64,000 bases of DNA, from contig CAWAYP010000008.1 in NCBI GenBank assembly GCA_963786375.1, positions 659 to 64,658 on the forward strand, read 5' to 3'. Within the stretch, counting starts at the first letter, position 1. The number at the start of each line of letters is the position of its first letter. Under the pieces are notes generated by a model, which did no database searches, had not been told where the DNA came from, and was given only the letters and a program-made list of their open reading frames with translations. Position numbers and translations under genes: made by a program. Source of the stretch: an uncultured Verrucomicrobiae bacterium. GTDB lineage: Bacteria; Verrucomicrobiota; Verrucomicrobiia; Limisphaerales; UBA11358. Shown piece by piece: positions 31,809-61,053 of the stretch.

Positions 31809-31930
31809 GGTAGGGACGGCGCGCCGCGCCGTCCGCGCCGCGTTCAGCGGCGCAACTCCCTGCGTGAACCTTGGACGTTCATTCCGCCCGCTCCACGCGG
31901 GCGGGGACATCGCAGCGCGATGTCCCTACC
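31809..31930. repeat. Family A composite hairpin module (GTAGGGAC...GTCCCTAC), solitary copy
   Basis: ggtagggacggcgcgccgcgccgtcc / gcgccgcgttcagcggcgc / linker / ccgcccgctccacgcgggcgg / ggacatcgcagcgcgatgtccctacc. The architecture matches modules at 55.9-56.3 kb and 59.3-59.6 kb. Confidence 0.8.
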
Positions 31931-50573: not shown

Positions 50574-51095
50574 GTGAACCGGTATCAAGACAACCAATTT
50601 CCTCAACGCCAAAATCCTTCACCCGGCGTCCATATCCAATTGGGCCAATCCAACATGGTCCTGCTGACGATTACCACCGAAAAGCGCGAACCCTGGCTGG
50701 CCAATGAAGGAGCACATCAGCTTCTTCACCAGACCTGGTCAGAAGCGACTGCCTGGTTGGTCGGCGATTACTTGCTGATGCCGGACCATTTTCACTTGTT
50801 TTGTGCACCGGGAGATTTGCACTTCACCATTGAAACGTGGATTTCCTATTGGAAGCGCGAATTCGCGCTAAAGCAAAAACAGCTCGCGAGGACGCTCGCC
50901 CCACCAAAAAGCGTCGTCCCGCCAGAATGGAAATTTCAGTCACGCGGCTGGCATCATCGGCTGCGTGATGGTGAAAATTATTCGGAGAAGTGGGTTTACG
51001 TGCAGGAAAATCCGATCCGTAAAGGATTGGTTAAACGAATTGAAGACTGGCCATTCAAAGGTCGAGTGTTTGATTTGATTTGGACTGGAAAGTGA
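50574..51095 (+). CDS. REP-associated tyrosine transposase (RAYT, IS200/IS605 Y1 HUH family), copy 1
   Basis: HUH motif LMPDHFHLF and tyrosine motif WVYVQENPIRKGLV...DWPF. GTG start. Confidence 0.75.
   Translation: MNRYQDNQFPQRQNPSPGVHIQLGQSNMVLLTITTEKREPWLANEGAHQLLHQTWSEATAWLVGDYLLMPDHFHLFCAPGDLHFTIETWISYWKREFALKQKQLARTLAPPKSVVPPEWKFQSRGWHHRLRDGENYSEKWVYVQENPIRKGLVKRIEDWPFKGRVFDLIWTGK
50883..50906. repeat. Family B repeat unit inside RAYT copy 1
   Basis: gctcgcgaggacgctcgccccacc, translated as LARTLAPP. Confidence 0.7.
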
Positions 51096-51152
51096 CTTCA
51101 CATGACGGCTAGAGCCTTTCCATAAAACATGTAGCTTTACACATGCGGTGCG

Positions 51153-51566
51153 GTGTGGCAGGGTGTCGTCATGCGCGCCATTCCTCTACCGATCCGCGAA
51201 CGAATCATCCACCTCTATGAACAGGGCAAAGGCACCGGCGAAATTGCGGAGTTCTTTGGTTTCTGTGTTGCCGCCGTGCGGCGGGTTCGGCAGCAGTTCA
51301 AGGCGCGCGGCACGCTGCAACCCCAAACTCATCAATGCGGGCGCAAGACACTGTTGACCGCCCGCCGGAAAGCCCGCCTGCAAAGACTGGTGGCCCAGCA
51401 ACCCGACGCCACTCTGGCTGAACTGGGAACCCGCCTGGATCGCCCCTTTCGGACTTCGACGGTGGACTTATGGCTGCGGCGGCTGGGGTTGACGTATAAA
51501 AAAAACGCTGCACGCCGCCGAACAAAATCGCCCCGACGTGGCCGCAAAACGGGCTGGCTGGCATGA
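51153..51566 (+). CDS. IS630 transposase, N-terminal HTH part (orfA)
   Basis: IRERIIHLYEQGKGTGEIAEFFGFCVAAVRRV helix-turn-helix. It ends shortly after an A8 run at 51497-51504. Confidence 0.75.
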   Translation: MWQGVVMRAIPLPIRERIIHLYEQGKGTGEIAEFFGFCVAAVRRVRQQFKARGTLQPQTHQCGRKTLLTARRKARLQRLVAQQPDATLAELGTRLDRPFRTSTVDLWLRRLGLTYKKNAARRRTKSPRRGRKTGWLA

Positions 51567-52101
51567 GTCGCTGGCCGGAGAATCCCCGGCGCAGATGGTG
51601 TTCGTGGATGAAAGCGGAGCCAACACGCGGATGACCCGCTGGCGTGGCCGCGCGCCAACAGGCCAACGGCTCGTCGCCCGGATTCCGCACGGCCATTATC
51701 AGACCAGCACCCTGATTGCCGGGGTCGGCCTGCGCGGAGCCTGCGCCCCGTGGTTGTTTGACGGGGCCATGGACGGGGAGATGTTTTTGGCGTGGGTGCG
51801 GCAGGGATTGGCGGCCGTCCTACAGTTCGGCGATCTGGTCATCATGGACAATCTGGCCACACACAAGGTGGCCGGGGTGCGTGAGGCCATTGAAGCCGTC
51901 GGCGCCCGGCTGTTGTATCTGCCGCCCTATTCGCCGGACTTCAACCCCATTGAAAACATGTGGAGCAAGATCAAACAGGCGCTGCGCAGCCGCTCCCCGC
52001 GCACCCAGACGGAGTTGCTGATCGCCGCCGCCCTGGCGTTTGATTCCATTTCATCCGCTGACTGCCTCGGTTTCTTTTTGCACGCCCGATACGCTATATG
52101 A
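51538..52101 (+). CDS. IS630 transposase, DDE catalytic part (orfB)
   Basis: Motifs VFVDESG, IMDNLATHK and LPPYSPDFNPIENMWSKIK. The frame is continuous with orfA if one A of the A8 run is skipped. Confidence 0.8.
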   Translation: MAAKRAGWHESLAGESPAQMVFVDESGANTRMTRWRGRAPTGQRLVARIPHGHYQTSTLIAGVGLRGACAPWLFDGAMDGEMFLAWVRQGLAAVLQFGDLVIMDNLATHKVAGVREAIEAVGARLLYLPPYSPDFNPIENMWSKIKQALRSRSPRTQTELLIAAALAFDSISSADCLGFFLHARYAI

Positions 52102-52125
52102 TTTATGGAAATGCTCTAGCGCTCC

Positions 52126-54008: not shown

Positions 54009-54295
54009 CGCTGGCGCGCGGTCCGGCCACATCCTGTACGTGGACGGCTGCAGAATTTTTGAAACTGCTCTGTGGTCAGGCATCCCTTCGGGATCCATTC
54101 TCTCTGGCAGTTCCACTTAACATTGGCACAGGCGATTATTCGGCAGGGCTGACCTGCCGGTCAGCCAACCGGCGGCGCAGCAGCGCCGCCCCACCGTGTG
54201 TGTGTGTCAAAGTCATTGTGATTTGCCATAAAATCGGCGTGCGACGATTTTTCATGGCCTCCGGCAATCATGGCGTTTATGATTTTACGGCCATC

Positions 54296-55846
54296 ATGAA
54301 GTTGAAGCGACAATCGTTGGTTTCTCCCGGTTCCATCTCCCGCATGTTGCAAGCCGCGGAACAGGCCTGGAAACGCCGGGATTTCCCGCAAAACCTCGAG
54401 CTGCTGGAACGCGCCAGCCGGCTGGACCCGGCCAATCCAGCCATCCTGCTGCAATTGGGCCGGAGCCACGGGCTGGGTTTCGATTATGCCGCCGCCGAAC
54501 AATGTTTTGAACGGGCCATCCGCGTTACCTCGCGTAAGACCGAGACACTCGCGGCAGCGGGAATCCATAGCCGCGATTTCCGCAACCCGGAACTGGCCGA
54601 ACGCTACTTCCGGCGGGCCGCCGAACAAAAAGATGCCCCGCCCGAGGCGCTGATTTATCTGGCCGAGCTTTACGAACGTCTCCGCCGCGGAGCCGAGGCC
54701 GCCCAATTGATTGACCGGGCGCTGCAATTGAACGGCGCCTGCCCGCCGGCCCTGCTCGCGCGCGCCCGGCTGGAACGCCAGGCCGGCCAACTGGCAGAGG
54801 CCGAACAGCGGTTGCGCTCCATTCCCAAAACCGCCGACCGGGACACGCGGGTGCGGAGCCTTTACGAACTGGGCGCCGTCCTCGACCGCCAGGGCCGGTA
54901 CGATGAAGCCATGACCGCCTTCCTTGAGGCCAAGTCCATGCTGCGCCAGGATGCGACGGGCTGGCTGGCGGAATTAATGGTCGTTCGCGACCGCTTGAAG
55001 GTCATGCGGGCCAACATTACGGCCGAACTGTTTCAAAAGTGGTTCGACACCGCCCCGGCGCTGGCGCCCGCCCGGAGAATCGCCCTGCTCTGCGGCCATC
55101 CCCGCTCCGGCACCACCCTGCTCGAACAGGTCCTGGACTCCCACCCGGACATCATCTCCGCCGAGGAGACGGAACTGTTCCATGACTACGCCTACATGCC
55201 GGTGATGCGAGGTTCGCCGGAAGGCGCGCTCATGCTGCCCGTTTTGGAATCGGCGCCAACCGACTTGCTGAAACATGCGCGCGACCGATATTTCCGGCAA
55301 ACGGAATTGCTCCTGGGCCGGCCAATCAAAGGCCGGTTGCTCATTGATAAAAATCCGTCGCTCACTTTTTTCATCCCCGCCATCCTGCGCGTGTTTCCCG
55401 AATTAAAACTCCTGATTGCGTTGCGCGATCCGCGGGACGTGGTCCTGAGCTGTTTCATGCAGGCCTTTGTTCCCATCGGGCAAGTCACCGCCGCCTACCT
55501 GACCCTGGAAGGCACCGTGGACGAATATGCCGCCCTGGTGGGCATCTGGCAGACCCTGGCTCCGCTGCTGCAAGGCCATTATCTCGAACTGCGTTACGAG
55601 GACATGGTGGACGATTTGGAATCCGTCTCCCGAAAGTCGCTGGATTTTCTGGGCGTTCCGTGGGACGCCAACGTGCTGCATTTTGACGAACACGCGCGGC
55701 AGAAACAGGTGCGCTCGCCCACGTACGCCGACGTGGCCAAACCGGTATTCAAAACCGCCGTCGGCCGCTGGCGGAATTATCAGAAATATCTGGAGCCGTT
55801 CCTGCCCAAATTGGAGCCGTTTGTGAAGGCATTTGGATATGAGTAG
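54296..55846 (+). CDS. TPR-domain sulfotransferase, paralog 1
   Basis: N-terminal TPRs, PAPS-binding-like CGHPRSGTTLLEQ and RDPRDVVLSCF. The ATG at 54296 matches the starts of the paralogs. Confidence 0.75.
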   Translation: MKLKRQSLVSPGSISRMLQAAEQAWKRRDFPQNLELLERASRLDPANPAILLQLGRSHGLGFDYAAAEQCFERAIRVTSRKTETLAAAGIHSRDFRNPELAERYFRRAAEQKDAPPEALIYLAELYERLRRGAEAAQLIDRALQLNGACPPALLARARLERQAGQLAEAEQRLRSIPKTADRDTRVRSLYELGAVLDRQGRYDEAMTAFLEAKSMLRQDATGWLAELMVVRDRLKVMRANITAELFQKWFDTAPALAPARRIALLCGHPRSGTTLLEQVLDSHPDIISAEETELFHDYAYMPVMRGSPEGALMLPVLESAPTDLLKHARDRYFRQTELLLGRPIKGRLLIDKNPSLTFFIPAILRVFPELKLLIALRDPRDVVLSCFMQAFVPIGQVTAAYLTLEGTVDEYAALVGIWQTLAPLLQGHYLELRYEDMVDDLESVSRKSLDFLGVPWDANVLHFDEHARQKQVRSPTYADVAKPVFKTAVGRWRNYQKYLEPFLPKLEPFVKAFGYE

Positions 55847-56398
55847 GTAAGGACACGTCGCCGACGTGTCCGCGCCCCAACCGGGCGCAACCTTCCGGCG
55901 GCTTTTCCGCCGGAGACATCGCAGCGCGATGTCCCTACCAAATCACATTCATCCGACAATGGCAGAATGGCGCGCCGCGCCGTCCGAGCGCCGCGTCCAG
56001 CGGCGCAATCGCGGATTCAAAAACCTTGCACCCTCGTTCCGCCCGCTGGACGCGGGCGGGGACGGGTAGGGACACGTCGCCGACGTGTCCGCGCCCCAAC
56101 CGGGCGCAACTTTCCGGCGGCTTTACCGCCGGGAACATCGCAGCGCGATGTCCCTACCAAATCACATTCATCCGACAATGGCAGGATGGTTCGCCGCGCC
56201 GTCCGAGCGCCGCGTCCAGCGGCACAATCGCGGATTCAAAAACCTTGCACCCTCGTTCCGCCCGCTGGACGCGGGCGGGGACGGCTGGGGCCAGCCGTCC
56301 CTACCGGGTAGGGACACGTCGCCGACGTGTCCGCGCCCGAACCGGGCGCAATTCCGGCGGCGTTACCGCCGGGGACATCGCAGCGCGATGTCCCTACC
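55847..56398. repeat. Family A repeat array 1 (three four-hairpin units alternating with two long modules)
   Basis: Recurring gtagggacacgtcgccgacgtgtcc gcgccccaaccgggcgc ..tccggcggctttaccgccgga gacatcgcagcgcgatgtccctacc. It starts at the stop codon of paralog 1. Confidence 0.85.
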
Positions 56399-56399
56399 A

Positions 56400-56432
56400 G
56401 AACCGTTTGTAAAGGCGTTTGGATACAAGTAA
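56400..56432 (+). pseudogene. Orphan 3' tail (last about 10 codons plus stop) of a sulfotransferase paralog
   Basis: gaaccgtttgtaaaggcgtttggatacaagtaa encodes EPFVKAFGYK*. Compare LEPFVKAFGYE* at the ends of both intact paralogs. Confidence 0.7.
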
Positions 56433-56450
56433 GGTGGTCGAGAGACAAGG

Positions 56451-56527
56451 GCTGCGGCTCGTCAGTAGCCTCGCCCCACCACCATATGGTCACATCAGGT
56501 GGGGCGAGCGTACTCGCGAGCCGCAGC
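56451..56527. repeat. Family B inverted pair forming a long hairpin
   Basis: gctgcggctcgtcagtagcctcgccccacc, a 17-nt spacer, then ggtggggcgagcgtactcgcgagccgcagc. Confidence 0.8.
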
Positions 56528-56598
56528 TAATTGTGTGAGTCCCTGTGGATTTTCTCCGCTTGCGCGGGAAACCAGAGCCTTTATGATTTCGGCACATC

Positions 56599-58194
56599 AT
56601 GAAGTTGAAGCGCCCACAGTTGGTCCACCACAGTTCCGTCGTTAAATTGTTCCAGGCCGCCGAGCAGGCGCTGCAACGCAAGGATTTCCAGCAAAATTTC
56701 GAGCTGCTCGAACGCGCCCGCAGCCTGGACCCGGCCAATCCCGCCATTCTGCTGCAATTGGGCCGGAGCCACGGGTTGCGCTACAATTATACCGCCGCCG
56801 AGGAATGCTTTGAAAAAGCCATCCAGCTTGCCCAAAACAAAACCCAAATCATGGCAATGGCCGGCGCGCAAAGCTGCGATTTTTTCAATCCGGAGTTGGC
56901 GGAGCGTTATTTCCGGCGGGCCGTGGAACAAAAGGACGCCACCGTTGGAATGCTGGTCCAATTGGCGGAGATTTATGAAATGTTCTTCCACCGCATGGCC
57001 GAGGCCAGTCAAATGATTGATCGGGCGCTGCAAATGGATCCCACTTTTCAGAGGGCCTTGCTGACGCGCGCCCGGCTGGAGCGCCAGGCCGGCCATTTGG
57101 AAGAAGCCGAGAAATTGCTGCGCTCCATTCTCGCAACGACTGATCAGGAGACGCGCATCCGGGCCTATTATCAGTTGGGCGCCGCCCTGGATCGTCAGGG
57201 GCGATATGATGAAGCGATGGCGGCTTTCATCGAGGCCAAGGCGCCTTTTCAGGCGCAGAGCGGGGCATTCTTTCTTCAACGTCAAATTGCCGGCGCGCAT
57301 TTGCGGGAGATACTCACCAGTATTTCCGCCGAAACTTTCCAGCGCTGGTTTGATTTTGGCCGGGAACTACAACCACCCCGGCGGCTGGCCATGCTTTGCG
57401 GCCATCCCCGCTCCGGCACCACCTTGCTGGAGCAGGTGCTGGATTCGCATCCGGACATCATTTCCGCCGAGGAAACGACTGTTTTCTATGAGTCTGTGTA
57501 TCTGCCTTTGGCGCGCACGCAACCGCCGCCAGCACCTCGCCCAGGCCTGCCCCCACAATTCCAAATGTCCGATCAAGTAGAACTTTCGGTGCTGGAAGCC
57601 GCCCCGAAGGATTTGTTGCAGCAATTGCGGGAGAATTATTTCCAAACCATGGAGCGTTGCCTGGGAAAACCCATTGACAACCGGCTGTTAGTTGACAAAA
57701 ACCCGGCGCTCACGCTGCTGCTCCTCGGTTTCCAGCGCGTCTTCCCGGAAGTCAAACTCATCGTCGCACTGCGCGACCCGCGAGACGTGGTCTTGAGTTG
57801 TTTCATGCAGAATTTTGCGGTTCTTGCCCCAAGACATACCGCCTTCTTCAACTTGAAGGACACAGTCGAGCAATATGTCGAGGAAATGAACATCTGGCGG
57901 ACGCTGGCGCCCATGATTCCGGGCCGGTATCTCGAAGTCCGGTACGAGGACATGGTGGAGGATTTGGAATCCGTTGCCCGCAGGACGCTGGATTATTTGG
58001 GCGTTTCCTGGGACGTCAAGGTGGTGCATTTTTACGAACGGGCGCGGCAGAGACGGGTGCGCACGCCCGGTTACGCGGACGTAGGCAGGCCGGTCTTCAA
58101 AACCGCGCGGGGCCGCTGGCGGAATTATCAGAAATATCTGGAGCCGTATCTGTACCGGCTGGAGCCGTTTGTAAAGGCGTTTGGATATGAGTAG
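56599..58194 (+). CDS. TPR-domain sulfotransferase, paralog 2
   Basis: Same architecture and motifs as paralog 1 (CGHPRSGTTLLEQ, RDPRDVVLSCF, ..LEPFVKAFGYE*). Confidence 0.75.
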   Translation: MKLKRPQLVHHSSVVKLFQAAEQALQRKDFQQNFELLERARSLDPANPAILLQLGRSHGLRYNYTAAEECFEKAIQLAQNKTQIMAMAGAQSCDFFNPELAERYFRRAVEQKDATVGMLVQLAEIYEMFFHRMAEASQMIDRALQMDPTFQRALLTRARLERQAGHLEEAEKLLRSILATTDQETRIRAYYQLGAALDRQGRYDEAMAAFIEAKAPFQAQSGAFFLQRQIAGAHLREILTSISAETFQRWFDFGRELQPPRRLAMLCGHPRSGTTLLEQVLDSHPDIISAEETTVFYESVYLPLARTQPPPAPRPGLPPQFQMSDQVELSVLEAAPKDLLQQLRENYFQTMERCLGKPIDNRLLVDKNPALTLLLLGFQRVFPEVKLIVALRDPRDVVLSCFMQNFAVLAPRHTAFFNLKDTVEQYVEEMNIWRTLAPMIPGRYLEVRYEDMVEDLESVARRTLDYLGVSWDVKVVHFYERARQRRVRTPGYADVGRPVFKTARGRWRNYQKYLEPYLYRLEPFVKAFGYE

Positions 58195-58530
58195 GTAGGG
58201 ACACGTCGCCGACGTGTCCGCGCCCCAACCGGGCGCTACGTTCCGGCGGCTTTACCGCCGGAGACATCGCAGCGCGATGTCCCTACCAAATCACATTCAT
58301 CCGACTATGGTAGGGATGGCGTGCCGCGCCGTCCGAGCGCCGCGTCCAGCGGCGCAATCGCGGATTCAAAAACCTTGCACCCTCGTTCCGCCCGCTGGAC
58401 GCGGGCGGGGACGGCTGGGGCCAGCCGTCCCTACCGGGTAGGGACACGTCGCCGACGTGTCCGCGCCCCAACCGGGCGCAACTTTCCGGCGGCTTTACCG
58501 CCGGAGACATCGCAGCGCGATGTCCCTACC
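58195..58530. repeat. Family A repeat array 2
   Basis: Same units as array 1. It spans from the stop codon of paralog 2 to the stop codon of RAYT copy 2. Confidence 0.85.
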
Positions 58531-59218
58531 ATTCAAACTGAGGGCGTTGGCCGTCAGCAAAATAAACGAACGGCCAGTCTTCGGGGCGTGGGGCCAGTTC
58601 TTTCCGCACGGGATTTTGCAGGATGTAATCTGCCTTTTCACGGCGACTTTCCTCATGCCTCAACCGATGTTCGAAAAAATCACGTTGCCATTGGATGCCC
58701 AATTGCCGGGCTGTCCACCGTTTCCAAGAACTCACGACCTCCTGCAACGTGCGTTCCGCCCGCTGAACGCGCGCGGGGACGCCTCGGCGAGACATCCCTA
58801 CCGGGTAGGGACACGTCGCCGACGTGTCTGCGCCCCCGGCGGGCGCAGTTCCGGCAGCTTTACCGCCGGAGATCTCCCGGCCTGGCGTTCCTACCGGATT
58901 CGTTGGTAGGGACATCTCGCCGAGATGTCCGCCCTCCTCCCGGACGCCTGAGCCAGGCGTCCCTACCATGAGATTTGCGGGTGGAAAGGCAATCAAGGCA
59001 TGAACATGGTCGGGCATGAGGAGAAATAAATGGGCAAACCAGATGAATTGTTCGTTGCGGAAACGGACGCTGTCCAGCAATGGCCCGGCAACGTCGGGCC
59101 TGGCAAGATGATTGATTTCCCGGGGCTGGCAATTGACGGTGACGAAGCAAATTTCCAGTTGAGGATCAACCCACAACGGAATTTCGTGCGGCAACATCTT
59201 CCTGCGGGGAACAAACAC
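58526..59218 (-). CDS. REP-associated tyrosine transposase (RAYT), copy 2, carrying an in-frame family A repeat insert
   Basis: N-terminal LPHEIPLW...ICFVTVN, HUH motif LMPDHVHALI and tyrosine motif ADYILQNPVRKELA..DWPF. About 72 codons (58752-58968) are repeat-derived. Confidence 0.75.
   Translation of the reverse strand: MFVPRRKMLPHEIPLWVDPQLEICFVTVNCQPREINHLARPDVAGPLLDSVRFRNEQFIWFAHLFLLMPDHVHALIAFPPANLMVGTPGSGVREEGGHLGEMSLPTNPVGTPGREISGGKAAGTAPAGGADTSATCPYPVGMSRRGVPARVQRAERTLQEVVSSWKRWTARQLGIQWQRDFFEHRLRHEESRREKADYILQNPVRKELAPRPEDWPFVYFADGQRPQFEW
58752..58968. repeat. Family A repeat block inside RAYT copy 2
   Basis: Contains gggtagggacacgtcgccgacgtgtc..., ggtagggacatctcgccgagatgtcc and ggacgcctgagccaggcgtccctacc. 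Confidence 0.8.
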
Positions 59219-59270
59219 GGAAAAATAGTAGGACCGTCAAAAATGAGACGCAACGCCAAAGTATTTTTAT

Positions 59271-59642
59271 GGTAGGGCCAGCGCGCTGCGCCGTCCGCGC
59301 CCCAAGGGCGCAACGTTCCGGCGGCTTTACCGCCGGGGACATCGCAGCGCGATGTCCCTACCACTTTGCAATGGTTCGGTAGGGACATCTCGCCGAGATG
59401 TCCTGCGCCGTGTTCAGCGGCGCAATTGAAGATTCGGAAAGTCACGCGCTTTCGTTCCGCCCGCTCTGCGCGGGCGGGGACGGCTGAGCCAGCCGTCCCT
59501 ACCAAGCCGATATTTGGGTAGGGACATTTCGCCGAGATGTCCTGCGCCGCCTTCAGCGGCGCAATTGAAGGTTCGGGAAGTCGCGCGGTTTCGTTCCGCC
59601 CGCTCTGCGCGGGCGGGGACGGCGCAGCGCGCCGTCCCTACC
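59271..59642. repeat. Family A repeat array 3
   Basis: One four-hairpin unit followed by two long modules (59379-59504 and 59516-59642), ending in gtccctacc. Confidence 0.85.
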
Positions 59643-59649
59643 TTGAAAT

Positions 59650-59680
59650 AAAAAAACCCGCTCTTCCTCGGAAGAGCGGG
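59650..59680 (-). terminator. Rho-independent terminator of the PEP-CTERM gene 59715..60338
   Basis: cccgctcttc-ctcg-gaagagcggg (59657-59680) with a T run after the hairpin on the minus strand. Confidence 0.65.
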
Positions 59681-59714
59681 AATTCTGAAAAAAGCAACTT
59701 GATTGCCTTTTAAC

Positions 59715-60338
59715 TTAGGCCTGTTTGCGGCGGAACAGCATCAGCGCTGCCAAACCCAAACCACCCAACGCCATCGTCGTTGGCTCTGGCACTGGTGAGC
59801 CTGTCAGCACCACGCCCGGCATATTCGCCGCATAATCAGGTGGTAGAGCAGTTGACGTGAGTCCAAAACCACCAGCAGCGGTAGTTTCCTGCCACAAGGC
59901 TGAATAGCCTTTGACCGTAGCTAGGGCAAAAGTTGCTCCCGTCGTCGTGTCCCAAGCTTCATACATGAACGTCACGTTGCCCGAACTCCATCCGGTTATA
60001 ATCTGGTTTCCCGCAGAGAAGAATCCGCCAGGACCGACACCATAAGTGGCACCAGCATTTGCGCTAGTGCTGATAAACCCAGTGATGCCTGCCGTGGATG
60101 ACCCAGCGAAAGATGCCGCGCTGGTGCTGACAGTGCCAAGCTCGTAGAATAACTGAACTTCCACGCTTGCGCTGTCAACGTTGTTACCAACGGTATACCC
60201 GCTATTGGCACCCCACGTCACTTGGTCTGTCGTATAGGTGGCCGAGGAATAGTTGTTGAATAAGATTTGCCCTTGCCCAAAGGCGGCAATGCCCGAGGCT
60301 GCGATTCCAAGTACTGATAATACGATTGCTTTTTTCAT
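59715..60338 (-). CDS. PEP-CTERM sorting-domain secreted protein
   Basis: Signal peptide MKKAIVLSVLGIAASGIAAFG and C-terminal VPEPTTMALGGLGLAALMLFRRKQA. Confidence 0.8.
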   Translation of the reverse strand: MKKAIVLSVLGIAASGIAAFGQGQILFNNYSSATYTTDQVTWGANSGYTVGNNVDSASVEVQLFYELGTVSTSAASFAGSSTAGITGFISTSANAGATYGVGPGGFFSAGNQIITGWSSGNVTFMYEAWDTTTGATFALATVKGYSALWQETTAAGGFGLTSTALPPDYAANMPGVVLTGSPVPEPTTMALGGLGLAALMLFRRKQA

Positions 60339-60393
60339 ACTAGTTTTTTTTTGGTTTTAGGTTTGTTTCTTTAAATTGTTTATTCGGTTAATT

Positions 60394-61053
60394 CTAGCTG
60401 CTGGGCAAACTCTGAATCAGAGTGGCTCCAGCAGTCGGCGGAGTGATGAAGAAACCTTGGCCCACCGAAATACTGAAAACACTTGGAGTCCAAACACCAC
60501 CGAGTTTCTCAGTGCTGCTATAGGTGGAACTGCCAGGATTCCAGACACTAATGGTGGTCTTGTTTGGCAAAGTTCCAAGATCAATGTTGCTGGTATCAGC
60601 CAATGTCCCTGAATACGGAATCGGGCTGCAAATCAACGACTGCACACTGCCGGCATAGGTATTGGTAACGCTGGCACCTACGTTCGCAGTAACAGTCCCG
60701 ACAAATGTGTTTGTCTGAGCTCCCGCTGACGCGGAGGTTTGAATGAAGAACCCTTGACCAACAGCTATCTGAGGATCACTCGGAGTCCACACGCCACCGA
60801 GCTTTTCTGTAGATGCAAACGTGCTGCCAGTCCATGTGGCAATGGTTGTTTTATTCGGCAGGGTGCCCAATAGTGTGGCGACGTCGTTCGAGGTGCCGTT
60901 AATCAATTGGTTGCCCACCAAGGTCTGCTGACCCGCAACCAACGGAATATTGTAATATCCCACCACATTGGCGGAATAAACCGGTGAAGCGTTTGAAGAA
61001 ACCACGCCTGCGGCAAGGGCCGCCGCCGCAAATAATAGTATTTTTGTTCTCAT
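60394..61053 (-). CDS. Secreted protein with two tandem internal domain repeats
   Basis: Signal peptide MRTKILLFAAAALAAGVVSSNA at ATG 61053. The block LGTLPNKTTI..W..GS..STEKLGGVWTPS...VGQGFFI occurs twice. Confidence 0.65.
   Translation of the reverse strand: MRTKILLFAAAALAAGVVSSNASPVYSANVVGYYNIPLVAGQQTLVGNQLINGTSNDVATLLGTLPNKTTIATWTGSTFASTEKLGGVWTPSDPQIAVGQGFFIQTSASAGAQTNTFVGTVTANVGASVTNTYAGSVQSLICSPIPYSGTLADTSNIDLGTLPNKTTISVWNPGSSTYSSTEKLGGVWTPSVFSISVGQGFFITPPTAGATLIQSLPSS

Follow-up and report, generated by a model that had tools for sequence, protein, structure and literature searches.

A verrucomicrobial REP-associated tyrosine transposase gene with repeats of its own REP family in frame between its catalytic motifs

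The sequence analysed here (the window) is a stretch of 64,000 nucleotides from an uncultured Verrucomicrobiae bacterium (assembly GCA_963786375.1, contig CAWAYP010000008.1, positions 659 to 64,658). It contains a gene for a REP-associated tyrosine transposase (RAYT), which is flanked by arrays of repetitive extragenic palindromic (REP) sequences and carries a block of the same repeats, read in frame, between its two catalytic motifs. The features are listed in Table 1. The RAYT open reading frame (ORF) encodes 230 amino acids from a GTG start; public gene calls begin at an ATG at codon 8 (59195–59197) and give 223 residues. Its HUH motif is H71-V-H73 (59000–59008, in the context LLMPDH71VH73ALI), on a predicted β-strand of residues 71–77 in the AlphaFold2 model, and both histidines are invariant in 82 relatives. 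The catalytic tyrosine, Y198 (58625–58627), lies within ADYILQNPVRK on a predicted helix of residues 192–200, and is also invariant among relatives.

The ORF is a RAYT, that is, an HUH/Tyr transposase homologous to E. coli TnpA-REP. This agrees with an earlier reading made from the sequence alone (the first-pass annotation), which had noted that both motifs are intact. The identification is based on NCBIfam, on a profile search of the Protein Data Bank (PDB) and on the predicted fold, and not on Pfam: a Pfam scan of the full protein gave nothing at E ≤ 0.1 and only a chance match to AntA. The NCBIfam model for REP-associated tyrosine transposases, NF047646, matches the full protein in two stretches with 72.7 bits (cut-off 80). 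After removal of residues 83–156 these rejoin into a single stretch of 84.2 bits, which is above the cut-off. A profile of uninterrupted relatives finds a single structure in the PDB, E. coli TnpA-REP (4ER8, E = 1e-12). Similarly, the top PDB match of the AlphaFold2 model in Foldseek is 4ER8_A (E = 3e-6, TM 0.64, target-normalised), with IS200/IS605 transposases at ranks 2–30. The core is predicted with a confidence score (pLDDT) of about 90 (residues 20–80 and 160–225). Its N-terminal part, at about 90 over residues 20–80, has strands at 23–30, 61–67 and 71–77 and a helix at 41–56; the C-terminal part has values of 86–95 across residues 161–220, dropping toward the C-terminal end. RAYTs of this kind are labelled "hypothetical protein", because with the insert they fall short of the NCBIfam cut-off and lose the Pfam hit.

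The window contains 21 copies of the sequence GTAGGGAC where 0.37 would be expected, and none of 100 shuffles reached this count. All copies fall in five clusters, of which two abut the RAYT gene, one is inside it (5 of the 21 exact heads) and two are elsewhere in the 64 kb; those clusters that were compared with the ORF map are otherwise intergenic. Each repeat unit starts with the head GGTAGGGAC, the final bases of which open a 9-bp hairpin. Then comes a second hairpin (CCGCCCGC..GCGGGCGG, CCGGCGG..CCGCCGG or GCGCC(G)C..G(C)GGCGC), followed by AACG. The units are paired in inverted orientation with their heads outward, forming REPINs (inverted REP pairs) bounded by GGTAGGGAC ... GTCCCTACC. 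These are of type A (92–94 nt, six extragenic), type B (122–127 nt, four complete) or a short type (63 nt). The repeats match the published definition of GTAG-type REPs and REPINs. An Rfam scan of positions 55000–60500 returned only two chance-level eukaryotic matches, far under the gathering scores.

The 5' array ends about 52 nt upstream of the RAYT GTG, and the 3' array overlaps the stop codon, the TAG of which belongs to the terminal head. The same stop-in-head arrangement (..FEW* / TGAATGGTAGGGAC) is found in three related loci (L162, L082 and L083). REPs reportedly lie close to stop codons, an observation said to come from Liang et al. in 2015. The first-pass annotation was right that arrays of one family adjoin both ends of the gene, that its stop lies inside a terminal repeat, and that the family is a candidate cognate REP family of the GTAG type. 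Nor is the family confined to this gene: two further sites of the window, at 31.8 and 55.8 kb, have copies, as do 133 of 171 loci, comprising 170 around homologues from other assemblies and the window's own contig.

Inside the gene, the in-frame block is within one base of the 58752–58968, or about 72 codons, seen in the first reading. The full linker plus insert extends over residues 81–157 (58748–58978, 231 nt), between FPP (residues 78–80) and LQ (residues 158–159). Among 160 related loci that were scanned, the linker at this position is 12 nt long in 144 and 9 nt in 16, and two of the 160 have a second, extra-long gap besides the normal linker. The excess over uninterrupted orthologues is 219 nt, or 73 codons. 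The block consists of three units, E1 to E3. E1 is the sole short-type unit in the window, and has homologues as the first element in L168, L162 and L173. E2 is 74–83% identical to the six extragenic type-A units, which are on average 93% identical to one another. E3, also called REP_L, is the element common to the orthologous insert-bearing genes, and its hairpin here has two G-T pairs and one mismatch. All three forward heads in the insert are read as GTA-GGx (Val-Gly), never as xTAG. Folded as single-stranded DNA, the insert has a predicted energy of −77.5 kcal/mol (z = −5.6 against shuffles, 0 of 200).

In the AlphaFold2 model the insert has pLDDT below 50 and no secondary structure over residues 85–99 and 107–152; residues 100–106 score slightly higher, and are likewise without secondary structure. 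In a profile alignment the insertion site corresponds to TLPEGDDD of 4ER8. The residue just after the HUH strand is P73 in IS608 TnpA, where it forms part of a hydrophobic dimer interface, and is a polar E68 in the monomeric TnpA-REP (PMC3479197). This replacement suggests that in RAYTs the post-HUH loop faces the solvent and is permissive. A native low-complexity domain was considered and rejected as an explanation for the insert, since the DNA consists of recognisable REP units with heads and covarying stems. Orthologues have a 4-codon linker or a REP-derived insert at this position, rather than an unrelated domain.

Table 1 Features of the window and related inserts. Positions are those of the window unless a locus is named.
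Feature	Position	Strand	Length	Basis or remark
RAYT gene	58526–59218	-		ORF, NF047646, PDB profile search, AlphaFold2/Foldseek
N-terminal core, residues 1–80, including HUH	58979–59218	-		coordinates, AlphaFold2 pLDDT
C-terminal core, residues 158–230, including catalytic Tyr198	58529–58747	-		coordinates, AlphaFold2 pLDDT
Peptide GHLGEMSLPTNPVGTPGR				within the translated RAYT ORF
In-frame REP-derived block	58752–58967	-	216 nt (72 codons)	repeat alignment, translation
E1, short REPIN, two GGTAGGGAC heads and two head hairpins	58905–58967	.	63 nt	repeat annotation
E2, type-A REPIN, one degenerate head GGTAGGAAC	58804–58895	.	92 nt	repeat annotation
E3 (REP_L), single REP, head-to-tail in gene orientation, translated VGMSRRGVPARVQRAE	58752–58802	-		alignment to orthologues
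3' REP/REPIN array: type A 58194–58287, type B 58309–58435, type A 58437–58530	58194–58530	.		repeat annotation
REP head GTCCCTACC containing the RAYT TAG stop	58522–58530	+		TAG is the complement of 58526–58528
5' REP/REPIN array: type A 59271–59362, type B 59378–59503 and 59517–59642	59270–59643	.		repeat annotation
Same-family array between two sulfotransferase-TPR paralogues	55843–56400	.		head search, unit annotation
Isolated intergenic type-B REPIN, same family, 27 kb from RAYT	31809–31930	.		head search, unit annotation
Second RAYT, distantly related	50574–51095	+	173 residues	NF047646, 69.5 bits
GGTGGGGCGAG-family repeats	50390, 50442, 50491, 50892, 52137, 56467, 56498
Insert at the shared codon, window			+219 nt
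Insert at the shared codon, L162			+180 nt
Insert at the shared codon, L164			+330 nt
Insert at the shared codon, L165			+246 nt
Insert at the shared codon, L166			+54 nt
Insert at the shared codon, L168			+81 nt
Insert at the shared codon, L169			+102 nt
Insert at the shared codon, L170			+102 nt
Insert at the shared codon, L171			+105 nt
Insert at the shared codon, L082			+99 nt
Insert at the shared codon, L083			+51 nt
Region with an insert of the given length at the second site, L007	870–1400 of L007		66 nt
Region with an insert of the given length at the second site, L024/L096	2501–3043 of locus		72 nt
Region with an insert of the given length at the second site, L107	2501–3013 of L107		48 nt

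A protein search found 939 relatives, mostly verrucomicrobial proteins of 157 residues without an insert. Ten hits (P0002–P0010 and P0023) have extra residues at the identical position, with the same translated repeat words (VGTAGPAVPAR..., HLGEMSLP). DNA was fetched for the insert-bearing hits and for the 160 further loci, the metagenome and genome scans each being limited to the best 80 tblastn matches. This gives 11 DNA-verified alleles with a REP-derived insert at the same codon, every length being a multiple of 3; about 150 of the 160 scanned loci are without an insert there. A more distant protein, P0259, is also intact with an insert. The smallest inserts (L083 and L166) are a single REP in gene orientation, namely REP_L. 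In L082, L169, L170 and L171 an inverted REP is added head-to-head with REP_L, in L164 and L165 further REPIN units are added to it, and the inserts of the window, L162 and L168 start with a short REPIN. Near-identical alleles are separated by whole in-frame units (228 nt between L169 and L164, 141 nt between L171 and L165). REP_L variants that differ by 2 nt in the loop also differ by 1 nt at the junction, so that the frame is restored.

The gene order PEP-CTERM pair → RAYT ← sulfotransferase-TPR is common to L001, L082 and L162–L168, where the flank is sufficient; L083 is the exception, having no neighbour match. Parts of the same neighbourhood are shared by the uninterrupted relatives L003, L010 and L033. 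Because of the shared neighbourhood the insert-bearing genes are taken to be orthologues, and the conserved synteny supports a presumed vertical inheritance of the RAYT. A whole-gene neighbour-joining tree was tried as proof of several independent gains, and was rejected as a clean test because the nearest neighbours of the N- and C-terminal halves are discordant, so that a single gain with recombination cannot be separated from multiple gains. There is no specific target motif at the insertion site, the uninterrupted genes having a variable 12-nt linker without any GTAG-like motif. It is worth adding that there is an 11-nt identity (CGGAACGCACG), possibly a coincidence, between the right junction of the window insert (58748–58763, GCGGAACGCACG followed by TTGCAG) and the uninterrupted linker of L002 (585–596, TCGGAACGCACG followed by ATGCAG). 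In L162 the insert is preceded on its left by TCGGAAC. Deletion through CGGAAC microhomology may have given rise to some of the uninterrupted alleles.

The first-pass annotation had asked whether its own substrate is eroding the enzyme. Such erosion is not supported: the site is shared with at least 10 other metagenomic lineages, and the insert lengths are multiples of 3. Nor does the divergence of the coding sequence support it. Pairwise ratios of nonsynonymous to synonymous divergence (dN/dS) among insert-bearing genes are mostly 0.03–0.3 in both halves, with maxima of 0.36–0.56 in the N-terminal half, and dS is about 0.6–2.7 for most pairs and saturated (uncomputable) for a few. Such low dN/dS at high dS indicates a long divergence with both halves under purifying selection. 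Of 67 columns with a conservation of 90% or more, the window protein departs from the majority residue at two (Y24C and S77A), which is the family median. With its open frame, low dN/dS and ordinary number of departures, the window copy lacks the marks of a pseudogene. Of the repeat units in the window, those inside the gene have diverged furthest within their type, which fits old copies that now evolve as coding sequence.

Erosion does occur in relatives, as a minority outcome. The tally is 11 DNA-verified intact insert alleles plus P0259 against two disrupted ones (L172 and L173). An exhaustive search of representatives turned up both of these and, among uninterrupted genes, the frameshifted P0255, P0287 and P0352, which shows that broken copies can be detected. 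If insertions were neutral and independent, one third would be in frame; the tally is supporting evidence only, because the events are not independent and ascertainment favours ORFs. The counts modulo 3 in the locus scans are not unbiased either, since the best 80 tblastn matches favour contiguous ORFs.

The association between gene and repeats is general. In about 165 related loci the density of the head GGTAGGGA within 250 bp of the RAYT is 5.2 per kb upstream and 5.9 per kb downstream, and about 0.1 per kb at more than 500 bp, which is an enrichment of about 50-fold within 250 bp. The RAYT stop lies within a GGTAGGG head in 66 of 164 related loci. On the basis of these densities and stops, to be flanked by and terminated in its own REPs is the normal state of a RAYT in this clade.

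In-frame insertion is also not limited to one site or one family. The same RAYT family has a second in-frame insertion site, located between INCRERF and NQLA in the stretch that joins the first strand to the first helix, and the inserts there are again REP-derived and translated as ..GRDSALRCPDAAAQRPYP.. (Table 1). The window contains a second, distantly related RAYT with a repeat family of its own, consisting of the head GGTGGGGCGAG and a hairpin (7 copies in the window against 0.42 expected). One of the seven lies in frame inside the second RAYT ORF, translated as LARTLAPPK (50882–50909). Relatives of this second RAYT have a base length of 160 residues, and many have variable inserts of translated repeat at the same site. 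In-frame insertion of a RAYT's own repeat thus recurs in two RAYT families with different repeats.

Some observations point to more than tolerance of the insert. REP_L is 96–100% identical in nucleotide sequence among L082, L083, L164, L169 and L170, while the four-fold sites of the flanking cores are only about 50% identical among the same carriers (dS about 1–2). In the loci examined, the combination of hairpin 1 and hairpin 2 in REP_L is seen solely inside genes. Among 16 intragenic heads from six loci, pairing holds in 99.3% of hairpin cells and covariation is seen at four of the nine pairs, with a score that none of 500 shuffles reached. The residues encoded by the covarying hairpins change radically, for example from TAGPA to MARRA. 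The approximately 20 residues after the insert (SWKRWTARQLGI) are common to all insert-bearers, and the N-terminal halves fall in two clades. Between L164 and L169, dN is 0.218 in the N-terminal half and 0.007 in the C-terminal half, the discordance breaking at the insert. Hairpin conservation and discordance between half-genes together suggest that the hairpin is under selection, that the repeat recombines, or both. The insert-bearing RAYTs look like mosaics, which indicates that recombination took place at the repeat inside the gene or, for L169, that the short contig is chimeric.

Taking these observations together, our preferred reading, to which we give a probability of about 0.7, is that the window gene encodes an intact, selectively maintained RAYT of a verrucomicrobial clade, in which the REP-derived disordered loop is old and inherited. 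It builds on what is observed of gene and repeat identity, insert anatomy, shared position, frame conservation, purifying selection and predicted fold. We hypothesise that a single REP (REP_L) landed in frame in an ancestor of the orthologue group, in the surface loop after the HUH β-strand that would correspond to the polar E68 loop of the monomeric E. coli TnpA-REP. The REP_L allele would then have been inherited, and possibly also spread via recombination, with later gain and loss of REP or REPIN units beside the resident REP head. Selection would have kept mainly those versions that preserve the frame and avoid a head read as xTAG. In the window genome the outcome would be a 73-residue disordered loop from three repeat units, with the catalytic core unaffected. 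The source of the repeats we infer to be insertion catalysed by the RAYT and biased to its own gene.

Several points weigh against this. The window copy has C at position 24, where 79 of 81 relatives have Y. Two relatives are disrupted: in L173 (1–500) the N-terminal half is in frame 1 and the C-terminal half in frame 2, with a REP head read as TAG, and in L172 (840–1510) the whole C-terminal half is gone after a REPIN at the second site, with the HUH motif mutated to PDRVH. Ascertainment is biased to intact ORFs, most insert alleles having come from protein searches. The catalytic activity of the window RAYT is presumed from conservation only, and an uninterrupted paralogue may be present outside the 64 kb of the genome that is visible. 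Finally, a loop of 73 residues beside the HUH strand could impair DNA binding.

Some of these points would also fit an early pseudogene, in which insertion of its own repeat inactivated the window RAYT and the frame is open by chance. Besides the size of the insert next to the HUH strand, the Y24C substitution and the disrupted relatives, this is favoured by the composition of REP DNA, which is GC-rich with few stops, so that perhaps 10–20% of random insertions would leave the ORF open (an estimate from frame arguments). We nevertheless consider it improbable. The site and REP_L are common to lineages with saturated synonymous divergence and low dN/dS, each independent length change preserves the frame, the conserved residues are intact at the level typical of the family, and neither a frameshift nor a stop has arisen in the ORF, although its repeat units are older than those outside the gene. 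Still less credible, indeed close to negligible, is that the insert is an artefact of mis-assembly. Repeats are a classic cause of assembly error, and L169, L170 and L171 are on short contigs from short reads; but the window is on a 504-kb contig, independent assemblies from separate studies (among them L082 and L164, on contigs of 349 kb and 306 kb) have inserts at the same codon with different unit content, and for P0002 and P0007 the same allele is present in two independent assemblies (JGI and ENA).

A different alternative is a stronger version of the preferred reading and compatible with an active enzyme, namely that the intragenic REP has been exapted and is kept for a function of the nucleic acid itself. 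Possible functions are a site of binding or cleavage by which the enzyme limits its own expression, an mRNA hairpin that throttles translation, or a recombination hot spot that shuffles alleles. The near identity of REP_L despite diverged flanking cores, its exclusively intragenic hairpin combination, the pairing and covariation in spite of radical residue changes, and the discordance at the insert are all in its favour. Against it, the intragenic units of the window are degenerate (the E2 head, the mispairs of E3, and the low identity of E2); the REP consensus is conserved in all these genomes, so that an appearance of constraint could come from gene conversion by extragenic copies; L169, on a short-read contig of 1.4 kb, is possibly chimeric at the repeat; and most scanned loci do without an insert and are presumably functional. 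We therefore regard exaptation as possible and rather unlikely. The broader proposal, that RAYTs of Verrucomicrobiota have repeatedly captured their own REPs and retained REP_L, if not others, as a functional hairpin in a self-limiting feedback, is similarly tentative. If true, a domesticated transposase and its repeat population would be linked by a cis-regulatory circuit of a kind not described before, the substrate being built into the gene or mRNA.

The surroundings of the RAYT contain further features of note. The sulfotransferase-TPR paralogues at 54059–55846 and 56599–58194 both end in ..EPFVKAFGYE* right at a REP head, and an orphan third copy of the 43-nt tail of these genes is found at 56389–56431, after the array between them. 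The triplicated tail suggests duplication or rearrangement mediated by the arrays. Just downstream of the second RAYT is an insertion sequence (51108–52120), with a transposase-like pair (51153–51566 and 51538–52101, possibly one frameshifted gene) bounded by 28-nt inverted repeats (51108–51135 and 52093–52120). A hairpin resembling an intrinsic terminator, with a 10-bp stem and then a T run, is present on the minus strand at 59657–59680, after the PEP-CTERM gene (59715–60338) and upstream of the REP array and RAYT, thus separating the two genes. Co-transcription of the RAYT with the upstream PEP-CTERM gene was considered and rejected, as this hairpin intervenes. A search upstream of the RAYT start for a sigma-70-type promoter gave nothing convincing, the lone match being inside the ORF, and is uninformative for this phylum.

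The leading example of long-term coexistence between a transposase and its non-autonomous repeats, by vertical inheritance, is provided by RAYTs and REPINs. The present results show that cognate repeats do land in the RAYT gene, consistent with an action biased to the enzyme's own neighbourhood. They also show that the HUH/Y1 fold tolerates 17–110 extra residues in the post-HUH loop, as well as inserts in at least one further loop, which is useful for the engineering of HUH tags and for understanding why RAYTs are monomeric. The genes form a natural allelic series with 0, 1, 2 or more intragenic REPs, in which the effect on transposase expression and activity is directly testable.

The closest known system is the TnpA-REP "REPtron" of E. 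coli (Nunvar 2010; Ton-Hoang 2012; Messing 2012, structure 4ER8). It has the same HUH and single-tyrosine Y1 fold, its gene is flanked by cognate REPs, and in these the tetranucleotide GTAG stands at the base of an imperfect hairpin. TnpA-REP is a monomer, its HUH strand being followed by a polar loop with which the insertion site of the window gene aligns. However, the window RAYT is only about 16% identical to it, the REP head is longer (GGTAGGGAC) with two hairpins in the unit, and no REP interrupts the E. coli ORF. The TnpA proteins of IS200/IS605 (IS608, ISDra2) share the HUH/Y1 fold and the processing of hairpins on single-stranded DNA. They differ in being obligate dimers, in which the post-HUH loop is a hydrophobic interface (PMC3479197), so that an insert in this loop would be expected to be harmful; and, in contrast to single domesticated genes, they are mobile and present in multiple copies. 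The RAYT/REPIN system of Pseudomonas (Bertels and Rainey 2011; Bertels et al. 2017) resembles the present one in having inverted REP pairs as REPINs, and in apparent vertical inheritance with housekeeping-like conservation and synteny, but its REPINs are described as extragenic, and it belongs to another phylum. The Rickettsia palindromic elements (Ogata et al. 2000, as cited in PMC3733652) are likewise translated in frame as surface segments of apparently functional proteins. In contrast to REPs, they have no known dedicated transposase, and are of CGTC type or unrelated in sequence (PMC3733652).

Much of the setting has been described before. Di Nocera, De Gregorio and Rocco (2013) reported GTAG REPs in Verrucomicrobia, with REP termini giving TAG stops, REPs that overlap RAYT genes at their 5' or 3' ends, and REPs read in frame inside genes for known proteins, which are commonest in Opitutus terrae and form clusters encoding up to 43–82 residues (PMC3733652). 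The first-pass annotation had called the arrangement unusual. For flanking REPs, REP-head stops, overlaps with the ends of RAYT genes and in-frame intragenic REPs in Verrucomicrobia this does not hold, as these are already known (PMC3733652); for REPs inside their own RAYT, it may still hold. In the part of the intragenic-REP table of Di Nocera et al. that was available, no entry contains "transposase" or "RAYT", and the host genes are those for helicases, repair proteins, tRNA enzymes and similar (PMC3733652). Full-text searches of a limited literature library gave no report of REPs inside their own RAYT, the RAYT/REPIN papers found being silent on interrupted RAYTs. Here, by contrast, the host is the repeats' own presumed transposase, and the site lies between the catalytic motifs and is conserved across lineages. 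What appears to be new is that REPs lie within their own RAYT, at conserved positions between the two catalytic motifs, where they are kept in frame under purifying selection, and that this recurs in two RAYT families.

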